A stretch of DNA of 64,000 nucleotides from Candidatus Aenigmatarchaeota archaeon. Its GTDB lineage: Archaea > Aenigmatarchaeota > Aenigmatarchaeia > CG10238-14. The notes beneath the pieces are model-generated. The model was given only the letters and a program-made list of their open reading frames with translations. It made no database searches and was not told where the DNA came from. Both the position numbers and the translations under genes were made by a program. The stretch spans positions 101,543 to 165,542 of the forward strand of contig JAOAJH010000001.1 in assembly GCA_026414305.1 (NCBI GenBank), given 5' to 3'. The stretch's first letter is position 1. Each line of letters begins with the position of its first letter. Positions 16,293 to 45,742 of this stretch are shown in pieces.

Positions 16293-16327
16293 TATTATTA
16301 TATTGACGTTAAAATAGTAATTTTTTA

Positions 16328-16401
16328 TGCGTCAGGCGGGATTTGAACCCGCGCCGTCGGCTTGGAAGGCCGATATCCTAACCAGGCTAGACTACTGACG
16401 C
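16328..16401 (-). tRNA. trnG: tRNA-Gly(TCC)
   Basis: GCGTCAG/CTGACGC acceptor stem, CT-TCC-AA anticodon loop, GGTTCAAATCC T-arm; CCA not encoded. Confidence 0.97.
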
Positions 16402-16434
16402 ATGAAAATGTTTTTGTTAATCAAAAATAAAGAT

Positions 16435-33921: not shown

Positions 33922-33960
33922 ATAATTAAATGTGAAAGCAAAATTAAATTTTATATTGTT

Positions 33961-34046
33961 GCTGAGGTGGCAGAATCTGGCTAATGCGCCGGTCTCGAAA
34001 ACCGGTGTCCCTTTGGGACGTTAGGGTTCAAATCCCTACCTCAGCG
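33961..34046 (+). tRNA. trnS: tRNA-Ser(CGA)
   Basis: GCTGAGG/CCTCAGC acceptor stem, CCGGT-CT-CGA-AA-ACCGG, long variable arm GTCCC-TTT-GGGAC. Confidence 0.96.
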
Positions 34047-34085
34047 TATCTTAATTTCTGCCAGAGAAGTCGAATAATTTTAAAA

Positions 34086-34205
34086 TGGGGCTGCAGGGAT
34101 TTGAACCCCGATGACCAGGTATCTTCTCATCATCTGGAAATCAACGCTCCATCGACATACCTTGATCTGGAGCCTGGCATAATGGCCTGGTTATATGACA
34201 GCCCC
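34086..34205 (-). tRNA. trnW: tRNA-Trp(CCA) with 46-nt intron at 37/38 (intron 34121-34166)
   Basis: GGGGCTG/CAGCCCC acceptor stem, CCAGG-CT-CCA-G|intron|A-CCTGG; relaxed BHB. Confidence 0.93.
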
Positions 34206-42781: not shown

Positions 42782-44059
42782 TTAACTGTAAATTTTCAAG
42801 TATCTTGAGCTATTTTTCTCTTTTTTGTAATTTTCAAGCATAAGCAAAGGTATTCTCTCATCAGAATTAATTATATCCAATATTTCTTTTTGCACTCTCT
42901 CTAACTGCTCTATTCTGTCTATTAACGATTTCTCTTTTGTTTCTCTGGTTTCTTCTAACCTTTTCAAGCCTTGAAGGCTAACAGGATTATTGCACCTTGA
43001 ACAGAAATCAACATCAAAGGCATTCTCATAACCACACACAAGACATCTTTTAACCATAGTAGGATTTGTTTCATTCTCTTTCTTGACAAGACCCATGCTT
43101 TCCAATATTCGTATATTCACGTCATTTTGAGTCAAATGCGAATATATGTTAAGCATCTTGCTATCGTTTGTCCAACCAAACCTTTTTTTTAGTTGTTGGT
43201 CTGTTAGGATCTTGCTGTAATATGTTGCCGCACTATGCCTGAACAGATGAGGATATATCCTTTTTTGTATACTAGCTCTCTTGCAAATTTTCTTTAGTTG
43301 TCTAGCAAATGCATCATAGCTTAATCTTTGATAACTGTTTTTCTTTGAATATGTCAGCCATAAAGGATATTTAGGATTGTCTTTGTATGGATGCTGCAAC
43401 AAATATTCTTTCAAAAGAGGCACAGATTCGACAAGCATTATCTCTCTCTGTCCCGTTTTTCCATTTACATTTATGATGCATACTGTAGCCTTGCCTTGTG
43501 GTGTGTCTATTTGTTCAAAATAAATATCGTTCACATTCATGTTTAATATTTCGCTTATTCTTGCACCTGATTCAAACAAAGTAATGAGCAAGGTTTTGTC
43601 TCTTGTATTGTCACACTTACCTATAATCTTGCTTAACTCGTCTTTTGTTATGATGTCATTTGATTTCAATTTCTTTGTCTTGTTTTTGTTAACACTAATT
43701 TTGAGCCAAGCGACTATGTCAGGATATCTTTTATCAAGCCATTCATAGCCTTTCAATATTTGAAAGAATTTTCTTAAAGTGAGAAGAACTAAAAACTTTG
43801 TCCATTCACCATACCTATCATTGCTATTGACCCATACAGCAACAGTATTTACATCATCTTTTGTCCATTCGTCAAATGGTTTATCAACAACATTTCTTAT
43901 GATCTTGATGTTTCTGAGATATATGTTCATTCTACTCAAACTTATTTTATTGGCTACCATTTTCTCGTAAAAACGTTCTACATGCTTAAAGTCGCTTGGC
44001 GATAGCTTACTTCTAAAAAAATCCATATAGCTTTGCAATTGTTTTTTCTGGTAGTTCAT
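42782..44059 (-). CDS. Tyrosine recombinase/integrase with C-terminal zinc ribbon
   Basis: ESGARISE, GKTG.R, HLFRH, GW, IYSH; CLVC...CSRC. Confidence 0.96.
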   Translation of the reverse strand: MNYQKKQLQSYMDFFRSKLSPSDFKHVERFYEKMVANKISLSRMNIYLRNIKIIRNVVDKPFDEWTKDDVNTVAVWVNSNDRYGEWTKFLVLLTLRKFFQILKGYEWLDKRYPDIVAWLKISVNKNKTKKLKSNDIITKDELSKIIGKCDNTRDKTLLITLFESGARISEILNMNVNDIYFEQIDTPQGKATVCIINVNGKTGQREIMLVESVPLLKEYLLQHPYKDNPKYPLWLTYSKKNSYQRLSYDAFARQLKKICKRASIQKRIYPHLFRHSAATYYSKILTDQQLKKRFGWTNDSKMLNIYSHLTQNDVNIRILESMGLVKKENETNPTMVKRCLVCGYENAFDVDFCSRCNNPVSLQGLKRLEETRETKEKSLIDRIEQLERVQKEILDIINSDERIPLLMLENYKKEKNSSRYLKIYS

Positions 44060-44121
44060 AATTTTTACCTTATGGTGTCAGTTTAAATATACGTTGTATA
44101 GGACATAGAATATCAAAGGTT

Positions 44122-44228
44122 AGCCTCGGATGGGAGTTGAACCCATAACCTACTGATCTCTTGCAGTCATTCTTGCGTCCTAAGATCAGATACAAGTCAG
44201 TTGCTCTGCCAGGTTGAGCTACCGAGGC
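44122..44228 (-). tRNA. trnT: tRNA-Thr(TGT) with 33-nt intron at 37/38 (intron 44158-44190)
   Basis: GCCTCGG/CCGAGGC acceptor stem, ACTGA-CT-TGT-A|intron|A-TCAGT; BHB central helix CTTG/CAAG. Confidence 0.93.
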
Positions 44229-44332
44229 TTCTATTTTATAGATATTTTACTTATTTTTTATGAGAGCAAATATTATTAACTTTTTCATTGTAATAGTTAA
44301 ATCTTTTACTCTCATTTTTATTTTAGATAATC

Positions 44333-45742
44333 ATGAAATTTAAATTTTTAATATATTTGCTTTTGCCGTTGTTATTTTCAGCTGTATACGCACAAGATTA
44401 CAGTTCATCTATTACAATATATCCTAAAGAGATAACTGTAAGCCAATGCGGTATAGCAACTTATGATTTGAGTGTAAAAAACACAGGAATTAAAGAAGAT
44501 ACGTTATATGCTTTGGTTGAAGGTATTCCCGAAGGATGGTATTCTTTAAGTCACGAGTCTATAAAACTCAAACCTGGTGAGAGCAAGAATGTTTATCTTT
44601 TTGTGACAGCAAATTGCTTTGAGGAACCTAAAAACTACACTGCAAAAATATCATTTTTAGGGAACTCCGAGAGTTATGCAGAGTTCAAAATGAATGTTGT
44701 TTCAGATCATTCAATATCAATTCTAGTTCCATCTGAAATAAGATCATGTGCATGTGAAGAAACTCCAATAAAGTTTGTTTTGGCAAACACAGGGAAGTAT
44801 GAGGAAAAAGTGAAATTAACAGTAAAAGGTGGATATGTCAAGCAAGATGTAATCAACCTAAAACCAGGTGAACAATCACAGTTTGAAATGGTTTTAGAAA
44901 AGTCGTGCAACTCCTACGGAAATTACACATTTGAAATTAACGCAGAATCTATGACAAGTTATGCAAAAACATCAAAAAAGATCACAATAAACAGGGAAAA
45001 TTGCCATGATTTTCAGATAAAATATGATGAAGTAAAAAATCTTTGCTTAAATGAAAAAGCAACATTTTCTGTTTCAATATATAACACAGGTACGCTCGAT
45101 GATGAGTATTTGCTTTATATAGATGCTTTGGACATATCGGAAAAGGTTAATATATCTTCAAAATCCAACAAAACATTCAATTTGGTTTTTGAATCTGATG
45201 AAGTTGGTGTCATAGATTTAGGTTTTTCAGTAAAGTCAAGCACAAAAGAGTCAAAAGGTATGATAAGATTCAATATAGAGAAATGCTATGGAGTTGACTT
45301 GCAAGCAGAGCAAAATGAAATAACTATATTACTTGGAGATGGCAGGTTAGTGAAAGCAAAGTTAACTAATACAGGATCAAAGAATGACACATTTAGAATA
45401 ATTTCTGATGTTAAATGGGTTTCACTTAGACCAGAACAAATAAGAGTTGAGGGAATGAAGTCTGAAGACATATTCATATATTACAGCCCAGAATACAATC
45501 AACTTGGTGTTTTCAACACCACAATAAAAGCATTTTCAGAAAATTCAAAAGATGAGGAAAGCATCAAAGTCAATGTTGTAAGTGAACTTCCAATAATACA
45601 ACCTGAGGAAAACGCAAGCACAACTACAACATTGCAGCAAAGCGAAGGAGTTAGCAATAAAACATTGATAGCGCTTGGAGTTGGTATACTTATAACAATT
45701 TTCATATTCGGAATGATATACTTGTTTGTAATGAGGGATTGA
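44333..45742 (+). CDS. Cell-surface protein with tandem Ig-like (NEW3/CARDB-like) domains
   Basis: Signal peptide; four NTG repeats; Thr-rich linker; C-terminal TM anchor. Confidence 0.78.
   Translation: MKFKFLIYLLLPLLFSAVYAQDYSSSITIYPKEITVSQCGIATYDLSVKNTGIKEDTLYALVEGIPEGWYSLSHESIKLKPGESKNVYLFVTANCFEEPKNYTAKISFLGNSESYAEFKMNVVSDHSISILVPSEIRSCACEETPIKFVLANTGKYEEKVKLTVKGGYVKQDVINLKPGEQSQFEMVLEKSCNSYGNYTFEINAESMTSYAKTSKKITINRENCHDFQIKYDEVKNLCLNEKATFSVSIYNTGTLDDEYLLYIDALDISEKVNISSKSNKTFNLVFESDEVGVIDLGFSVKSSTKESKGMIRFNIEKCYGVDLQAEQNEITILLGDGRLVKAKLTNTGSKNDTFRIISDVKWVSLRPEQIRVEGMKSEDIFIYYSPEYNQLGVFNTTIKAFSENSKDEESIKVNVVSELPIIQPEENASTTTTLQQSEGVSNKTLIALGVGILITIFIFGMIYLFVMRD

Follow-up and report, generated by a model that had tools for sequence, protein, structure and literature searches.

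The locus described here raises the question of whether a very short tRNA intron can direct the methylation of the very precursor from which it will be removed. According to two reviews, intron-borne methylation guides in archaeal tRNAs rest so far on one case, tRNA-Trp, whose pre-tRNA intron guides Cm34 and Um39 or Cm39 (PMC7994747, PMC6313347). In the 64,000-nt stretch of DNA that we analysed (the window), which comes from a Candidatus Aenigmatarchaeota archaeon, a 33-nt intron interrupts a tRNA-Thr(UGU) gene. Judging from sequence comparison, we consider it probable (roughly 0.7) that this intron is a minimal, one-K-turn guide of the C'/D' type for 2'-O-methylation of N39 in the unspliced precursor. 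That the K-turn and guide architecture is conserved in the Thr(UGU) introns of the phylum we regard as nearly certain. Full-text literature searches gave us no report of an intron-borne guide in tRNA-Thr, or in any host tRNA other than tRNA-Trp, though an older mention is possible; nor did the literature so covered report Nm39 in tRNA-Thr(UGU).

Results

The tRNA-Thr(UGU) gene and its splicing fold

The host genome comprises 819 kb in 18 contigs, with 33% G+C. Rfam identifies four tRNAs in the window, two of which have long anticodon-loop insertions (Table 1); with introns allowed, ARAGORN reports the one at 44122-44228 as tRNA-Thr(tgt) with a 33-nt intron. In its default mode ARAGORN sees only the intronless tRNAs of the window (Gly, Ser) and misses both intron-bearing ones. 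The coordinates and letters of the Thr intron in the earlier note, which did not name the strand, were exact, and the strand is minus. Public DNA runs that contain at least one fifth of the sampled words from window positions 43700-44700 are labelled hot springs metagenome (X2, X3, X4, X6, X7; studies P2, P3, P5), a possible source run and one run with a coded name set aside; these labels are a hint at habitat only. The locus is contained in none of the RNA runs.

Table 1. Positions of tRNA genes, introns and predicted guide elements in the window
Feature	Position	Strand	Basis or remark
tRNAs found by Rfam	16327-16402, 33960-34047, 34086-34205, 44122-44228	last two minus	last two intron-bearing
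tRNA-Thr(UGU) gene	44122-44228	minus	Rfam tRNA 57.6 bits; ARAGORN -i
5' exon of tRNA-Thr(UGU)	44228->44191	minus	sequence
Anticodon UGU	44194->44192	minus	sequence
33-nt intron, canonical 37/38 position (after A37)	44190->44158	minus	ARAGORN, BHB fold
3' exon of tRNA-Thr(UGU)	44157->44122	minus	sequence
Putative guide i2-i9 (CUGAUCUU), complement of the intron/3'-exon junction	44182..44189	minus	A5 (44186) pairs U39
D'-type box AGGA (i10-13)	44178..44181	minus	GA in predicted sheared pairs
Apical loop CGCAAGA (i14-20)	44171..44177	minus	covarying hairpin (K-turn C stem) in many relatives
C'-type box AUGACUG (i21-27)	44164..44170	minus	
CAAG (i28-31), strand of the 4-bp central BHB helix that pairs C32-G35	44160..44163	minus	
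Putative target strand G31-G33 + A38-G42, across the 3' splice site (44158|44157)	44153..44160	minus	
Predicted methylated base U39	44156	minus	opposite A5, fifth base upstream of AGGA
tRNA-Trp(CCA) gene	34086..34205	minus	Rfam, ARAGORN -i
46-nt intron of tRNA-Trp(CCA)	34166->34121	minus	row L271

The splice sites were placed by the bulge-helix-bulge (BHB) fold, in which the anticodon stem is followed by a central helix of C32-G35 with CAAG, flanked by 3-nt bulges (UA|U and AG|A). An outer helix h', made up of C2-G27, U3.U26 and G4-C25, is weak. With this motif at its splice sites, and with EndA encoded in the genome (PF01974, 100.3 bits), the insertion is a BHB intron.

A putative guide across the 3' splice junction

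On the minus strand the intron reads UCUGAUCUU-AGGA-CGCAAGA-AUGACUG-CAAGAG, where UCUGAUCUU is U-CUGAUCUU. The segment CUGAUCUU pairs with i31-i33 and A38-G42 (GAG|AUCAG) through seven Watson-Crick pairs and U9.G31. In box C/D guides, the target nucleotide lies opposite the fifth base upstream of box D or D'; here that base is A5, its partner is U39, and the earlier note's application of the rule to U39 was correct. Downstream of the guide, AGGA and AUGACUG could form the sheared pairs G12.A24 and A13.G23, followed by G11-C25, A10-U26 and U9.G27. In the C'-type box, A21 and U22 together with the preceding base would then make up the bulge or the end of the loop, G23 and A24 would be sheared, and C25, U26 and G27 would supply one strand of the NC stem. 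The earlier note had described both the eight-pair duplex and the sheared motif; each can form as described, but U9 had been used twice, and its pairs with G31 and with G27 are mutually exclusive.

AGGA and AUGA are the only pair of boxes in the 33 nt able to form sheared G.A pairs, and the second motif of a bipartite layout (C/D plus C'/D') was sought in the intron and is absent. The boxes depart from consensus outside the GA: box D has the consensus CUGA and box C the consensus RUGAUGA, against AGGA and AUGACUG here. A box D at i2-5 (CUGA) was ruled out as well, as relatives with other anticodon stems have CUGGU, CUGCU or UCGCU at this place.

Nearest-neighbour energies are -3.2 kcal/mol for the BHB fold, -7.4 for the guide duplex and -10.2 for the minimum free energy (MFE) structure of the arm; with non-canonical pairs lying outside the model, these values do not discriminate between the two folds. 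The MFE structure of the whole precursor includes the guide duplex. When the intron was shuffled with its last two bases fixed, none of 200,000 shuffles gave seven guide pairs together with an in-register GA, a UGA located 5-12 nt downstream and a 4b.4n pair. In a strict scan of the introns that ARAGORN reports in this genome (7/7 pairs at positions 2-8), the Thr guide was the sole sensible match.

The proteins that such a guide would need are encoded: L7Ae (G000 C10:69900-70178; PF01248, 99.5 bits), Nop5 (C11:84837-85472; PF01798, 208.6 bits) and fibrillarin (C11:85510-86148; PF01269, 278 bits) all score above the curated cut-offs. The earlier note had named the absence of fibrillarin or Nop5 as an outcome that would count against it, and both are present, as is L7Ae. 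Within the phylum, fibrillarin was found in 356 of 371 genomes, including all 98 of high quality, so that its co-occurrence with the intron is uninformative, the gene being nearly universal in the phylum.

Conservation among Thr(UGU) introns

BLAST searches with the tRNA-Thr gene covered 41 related genomes, the family itself comprising 23. Intron-bearing Thr(UGU) copies were found in 10 genomes from four genera, and all ten keep NNGA...AUGA while the loop between the boxes drifts. Two genomes of the same family have intronless tRNA-Thr(UGU) genes (L015/L027 in G020, L016/L029 in G017), so the Nm39 guide function would be dispensable or otherwise supplied there.

For the phylum, we used patterns built from exons only, so that loci were not picked by the feature under test. 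The pattern CTTGTA-N30-60-GGTYNNNNGTTCRA, which leaves the anticodon stem free, was run over all 371 phylum genomes and matched in 111 of them, with 122 rows listed. We examined 105 of these rows (30 loci and 75 regions) and left out 17 by eye because in these the match starts within a different tRNA, in its acceptor stem or D arm. An anticodon-stem filter passed 86 of the 105 and failed 19, leaving 80 distinct introns. A full complement to 38-42 (5/5, Watson-Crick or G.U) is present in 64 of the 80, where shuffles predict 10.4, and in 60 this complement is followed by exactly 3 nt and then NNGA, where shuffles predict 0.74. With one mismatch allowed (at least 4/5 pairs) the motif is found in 70 of the 80 and is absent from the other 10. 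A weaker motif (5/5 pairs plus GA in register) arises in 0.9% of shuffles over all distinct phylum introns.

Several introns deviate in ways worth recording. Four of the loci that fail the stem filter (L183, L205, L206, L209) carry the motif all the same, and the 5 nt before CUUGUA in them are unpaired with 39-43; this points to a further intron within the anticodon stem, or to a gene that is split or permuted. Three others retain the guide, the spacing and the apical stem with altered boxes, the C' box being AAUGC in place of NNUGA in L232, and the D' box being GCAA in L238 and UUCA in L239. In genome G027, a tRNA-Thr(CGU) gene (L019:1396-1526, minus strand) has a 57-nt intron with GGAUGAGG...CAGA-AUGA...AGAUGA...CCGAUAA and a GGAGAG/CUCUCC stem, and may represent a fuller C/D-like intron in another Thr isoacceptor.

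The same exon target is found in other archaeal lineages. With one genome per prokaryotic species, the pattern CTGACTTGTA-N25-50-ATCAGNRGGT matched at least 120 stretches; among the matches listed, 116 have enough flank, 63 pass the tRNA filter and 62 are distinct. The motif occurs in 19 and is absent from 43 of these 62 distinct archaeal Thr(UGU) introns with identical exon target, again among the matches listed. By eye, three of the 19 listed carriers are a different type of intron that matches through G.U pairs, and three of the 43 listed non-carriers are family members with one deviation. The motif-bearing records among the matches listed are mostly Candidatus Aenigmatarchaeota. The exon and the BHB therefore do not force the motif, since introns of other archaeal lineages with the identical exon target are without it.

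Covariation and register of the guide

Where the anticodon stem varies, so does the guide: CUGGUCUU-UCGA occurs with GAG|ACCAG, CUGCUAGU-UUGA with GCU|AGCAG, UCGCUAGU-UUGA with GCU|AGCGG and UCGAUAUG-AAGA with GAU|AUCGA. Over the 70 introns, guide position g4 is paired with N39 in every case (A-U 37, G-C 17, C-G 13, U.G 2, U-A 1), and the partner of N39 is always the fifth base upstream of NNGA. The pair g2:41 is kept in 69 of 70 (U-A 52, C-G 14). Position g6 pairs with the last intron base in 66 of 70 (A-U 31, C-G 27, U-A 6) and g7 with the second-last in 67 (U-A 49, G-C 9, A-U 8), while g8, which adjoins the box, is paired in 42, and neither g8 nor g0 covaries. The conserved duplex is thus 7 bp long in the phylum set, against 8 bp in the window intron; it spans positions 2-8, which places the +5 base at its centre.

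The register was chosen independently of positions g6 and g7, which lie outside every tRNA helix. These two positions pair in 133 of 140 cells, as opposed to 71.2 +/- 5.1 when targets are permuted, and g1-g7 in register are paired in 473 of 490 cells (97%), as opposed to 27-49% when the target is slid by 1-3 bases; neither observed value was reached in 5000 permutations (0/5000 for each), figures that overstate independence, the genomes being kin, and for which the 35 distinct guide/target haplotypes are the fairer measure. In alignment A1 (MAFFT, 36 of the 70 introns, chosen for short, alignable apical parts) the guide helix is 96% paired and 4 of its 7 pairs change on both sides. Its covariation score is 0.585, compared with 0.169 in shuffles, and was reached by 0 of 500. 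Conservation and covariation in homologous introns, on which the earlier note had staked its proposal, were thus borne out, both in the counts (60/80 strict, 70/80 with one mismatch) and in this score.

One might object that this is an ordinary BHB intron in which the motif stands by chance or as a leftover, the intron being short and A-rich and GA and UGA being common words. The shuffling results (0/200,000 for the window intron; 60/80 against 0.74 expected) and compensatory changes at five guide positions leave this objection with hardly any probability.

A different possibility is that the guide is meant for another RNA in trans, such as rRNA or another tRNA, and that the match to its own junction is secondary. 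Archaeal C/D guides are usually trans-acting. The RNP of the Trp intron, too, is reported to act in trans (PMC7994747). Against this, changes in the Thr guide are matched in its own anticodon stem and in the two bases that end the intron and are found in no RNA but its own precursor, so that we consider a primary target in trans very unlikely. The same covariation of g6 and g7 with the last two intron bases backs the earlier note's assertion that the guide could act only on the unspliced precursor.

The identity of the target base bears on the type of modification. N39 is U in 37 of the 70 introns, C in 17 and G in 15, a variation that is compatible with ribose methylation but rules out a pseudouridine guide. 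Many tRNAs carry pseudouridine at position 39, and H/ACA RNAs also carry an L7Ae-binding K-turn or K-loop, so that an H/ACA-like guide for a base-specific modification such as pseudouridine might come to mind. We looked in the Thr intron for H/ACA features and found a single guide strand, with no two-sided pocket and no ACA box. Together with the variable target base this makes a base-specific modification highly improbable.

K-turn anatomy and spacing

In 34 introns the interval between NNGA and the C' GA contains a hairpin (2 bp or more) with a 3-nt bulge after it, and in 32 it is a loop of at most 12 nt; the crude script used found no C' GA in 4 of the 70 introns and mis-assigned a few others. 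The apical hairpins vary in sequence (GCC/GGC, CGCG/CGCG, GAACC/GGUUC, GAGC/GCUC and others), while across the phylum's Thr(UGU) introns GA...UGA is nearly invariant. In 60 of 66 introns a U (position L3) precedes the C' GA. The 4b.4n pair persists in 61 of 66 and shows covariation on A1 (UA 16, AU 9, CG 4, GC 4), the 3b.3n position being free. With the bulge on the 3' strand, an apical stem and a guide that departs from the non-canonical stem on the 5' side of D', the topology is that of C'/D'. The reverse orientation, in which the guide helix would be the K-turn's terminal stem on its C-stem side, was rejected for Thr, whose orientation is set by the apical hairpin and the 3-nt bulge. These features fit a predicted K-loop in the genus of the window and a K-turn with an apical stem in many relatives; the K-loop of the earlier note thus holds for the genus but does not extend to those relatives.

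Along the guide strand, the distance to D' is fixed at 3 nt, whereas on the other strand anything from 6 to 13 nt separates C' from the target. A guide-side spacing that is fixed and another-side spacing that is variable are what a ruler from box D' predicts, and count against a merely structural hairpin. On A1 the anticodon stem is 100% paired and the central BHB helix 87.5%. Since both the guide helix and the splicing fold are kept, selection acts on two mutually exclusive folds.

This dual conservation can also be read in another way. The K-turn and the anti-junction helix may be real and selected, yet serve something other than methylation: an L7Ae-bound fold could hide the 3' splice site and so delay or check splicing, or could chaperone folding. 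Such a role would account for the conservation of both folds and for the burial of the 3' splice site in the guide helix, and it sits well with a duplex of -7.4 kcal/mol that is comparable to or better than the bare BHB at -3.2 and appears in the precursor MFE. It would also suit the reported finding that a lone K-turn makes a poor methylation guide in vitro (PMC1635284). It leaves unexplained, however, why the spacing is fixed on the guide strand only (3 nt to NNGA, 60-70 of 80, versus 6-13 nt on the other), why the duplex is centred on +5, and why the +5 register recurs in Trp introns for C34, a known methylation site. We therefore regard a role other than methylation as unlikely and continue with the reading of the intron as a methylation guide.

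Introns of tRNA-Trp and of other tRNAs

The second intron-bearing gene of the window, tRNA-Trp(CCA), has the same layout, as the earlier note had observed. In its intron, AAGGU-AUG-UCGA places C39 at +5, and a second guide, UGGAGCG-UUGA-UUUCCAG-AUGAUGA, places C34 at +5. Two D-type boxes, UCGA (i12-15) and UUGA (i23-26), lie in tandem, but the C side offers a single AUGAUGA(GA). The intron may form a double K-turn, nested or alternating; judging from the sequence, the second GA after AUGA could be the C-type partner of the first NNGA, and the 3b/4b partners fit this pairing in four Trp cases checked by eye. For this first NNGA, a guide helix that forms the terminal stem on the C-stem side is also a possible reading.

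The wider Trp sample is a biased one of 40 loci picked by eye as Trp-like (all 17 family rows plus 23 rows of the same order), of which 39 were parsed and 38 are distinct. C34 lies at +5 of an NNGA followed by UGA (UGGAG-NN-NNGA) in 36 of these 38. Further 5', 10 of the 38 have an anti-junction segment, 3 nt and NNGA, with C39 at +5 and 6/6 pairs; the four distinct sequences from the genus of the window are among these ten. Within the genus, the Trp spacer covaries with the end of the intron, AU occurring with ...AU| and UU with ...AA|.

Other introns of this genome were inspected by eye. In the elongator tRNA-Met(CAU) gene (G000 C13:64997-65111, minus strand) the intron contains AAUGAGCG-AUGA-AAAAAAG-AUGAUU, and its guide pairs C30-U36 with C34 at +5. 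The gene at G000 C10:88147-88272 (minus strand), which ARAGORN calls tRNA-Ser(cga), is by eye a tRNA-Leu(CAA), with AUAGG/CCUAU as the stem 27-31/39-43 and A73; its intron, at the non-canonical position 30/31, reads UUGAGCA-CUGA-UU-UGAUGA, with consensus boxes and C34 at +5. The strict 2-8 scan misses the guides of Trp, Met and Leu, which by eye pair over positions 2-7 or 1-7. A 65-nt intron of tRNA-Ser(UGA) (G000 C11:149071-149220, minus strand) has CUGA-UUA-AUGAUG and a UCAAG complementary to 32-36, and no convincing target could be assigned to its motif. The NNGA-loop-UGA guide motif was not seen in the Tyr, Phe, Asn and Gln introns of this genome.

Discussion

The candidate guide in the Thr(UGU) intron suggests a sequence of events in which binding, methyl transfer and their order are inferred. 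NNGA and NUGA (here AGGA and AUGA) would form tandem sheared G.A pairs and thereby a K-loop or K-turn, to which L7Ae and subsequently Nop5-fibrillarin would bind. Within one molecule or between two precursors, the 7-8 bases that precede the D' box would pair with the last 2-3 intron bases and exon positions 38-42, a pairing that would melt the anticodon stem and the BHB and make N39 face the fifth base upstream of the box. The 2'-OH of N39 would next be methylated by fibrillarin, giving Um39 here and Cm39 or Gm39 in relatives, after which the RNA would refold to the BHB form and EndA would remove the intron. In Methanopyrus, modifications are reported to precede intron removal (PMC3695527). 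None of the in silico checks that could have refuted the self-guide interpretation put forward in the earlier note did so.

Of the features expected of a C/D guide, the Thr intron has the boxes that can form a K-turn or K-loop, and a guide 5' of D' with its target at +5. The usual guide-target duplex of C/D RNAs is about 10-12 bp, which is longer than the one found here, and the bipartite arrangement of C/D plus C'/D' is lacking. The single K-turn, the short duplex of 7-8 bp and the non-consensus boxes all speak against an Nm39 guide, as do the ten introns of the phylum set that lack the motif and the intronless genes of the two family members. A single-site C/D RNP is reported to have shown activity in vitro without site specificity, for which both motifs were needed (PMC1635284). 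It follows that RNPs built on such introns, having a lone K-turn, would have to become specific by some means not described so far.

With this in mind, one may speculate, tentatively and with more doubt than confidence, that the phylum keeps several tRNA introns as one-K-turn guides for their own anticodon arms: for N39 in Thr, for C34 and in some genera C39 in Trp, and for C34 in Met and Leu(CAA) (the last two by eye, in this genome). According to this speculation, lone-K-turn RNPs would gain specificity by an undescribed route, for example by reciprocal pairing of precursors, or by two different intron RNPs bridged through a Nop5 dimer, which would rebuild the two-fold C/D particle. If so, there would be a selective reason for the persistence of tRNA introns, and a natural minimal C/D enzyme.

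What appears to be new, as read from the sequences, is a putative intron-borne, one-K-turn guide in tRNA-Thr(UGU) that is widespread in the phylum; guides in Trp introns were known. If the reading is true, Thr(UGU) becomes the second host tRNA, a 33-nt, single-K-turn RNA would be the smallest natural guide of the C/D type, Nm39 is predicted in tRNA-Thr(UGU), and the in vitro rule that site specificity takes two box motifs is challenged. A guide role would also be a concrete function, one that could explain the retention of tRNA introns in genomes below 1 Mb.

Comparison with known guide systems

The closest known relative is the pre-tRNA-Trp intron of Euryarchaeota. Such introns are roughly 60-105 nt long, and their guide fold excludes the splicing fold. 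The Thr intron shares this exclusion, with the consequence that methylation would come before splicing in both, but differs in its host, Thr(UGU), in its length of 33 nt and in its non-consensus boxes. Whereas introns of the sR50 type combine C/D with C'/D' and have two targets, C34 and N39, the Thr intron has one K-loop and one target, N39; unlike it, the Trp intron of the window has guides for both C34 and N39, as in the sR50 type. The C'/D' K-loop of archaeal box C/D sRNAs has the same order of guide, D', short loop and C', the same tandem sheared G.A pairs, U at L3 and a target at +5. It differs from the Thr intron, which is without a terminal C/D motif, has a duplex of only 7-8 bp and holds its target tethered a few bases 3' of C'. 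Common to the Thr intron and to sR50 of Pyrococcus are a guide placed in the 37/38 intron and a target in its own precursor that includes position 39 (PMC7994747 and PMC6313347).

Synthetic half-mer and single-site C/D RNPs resemble the Thr intron in having one K-turn and one guide (PMC6239191, PMC1635284). According to PMC6239191, half-mer RNAs form complexes with L7Ae, Nop5 and fibrillarin, and a crystal of one of them bound to its target has been obtained. These constructs are artificial and are reported to lose site specificity, whereas the natural Thr intron has held strictly to the +5 register in the course of evolution. Pyrococcus has four C/D sRNAs directed at the wobble base of tRNA-Leu(CAA), Leu(UAA), Met and Trp, and among them the guide for Trp alone lies in an intron (PMC7994747). 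Here, too, the targets lie in the anticodon arm, the introns of Trp, Met and Leu(CAA) having NNGA-loop-UGA with C34 at +5; in this genome, the guides appear to reside inside their own targets.
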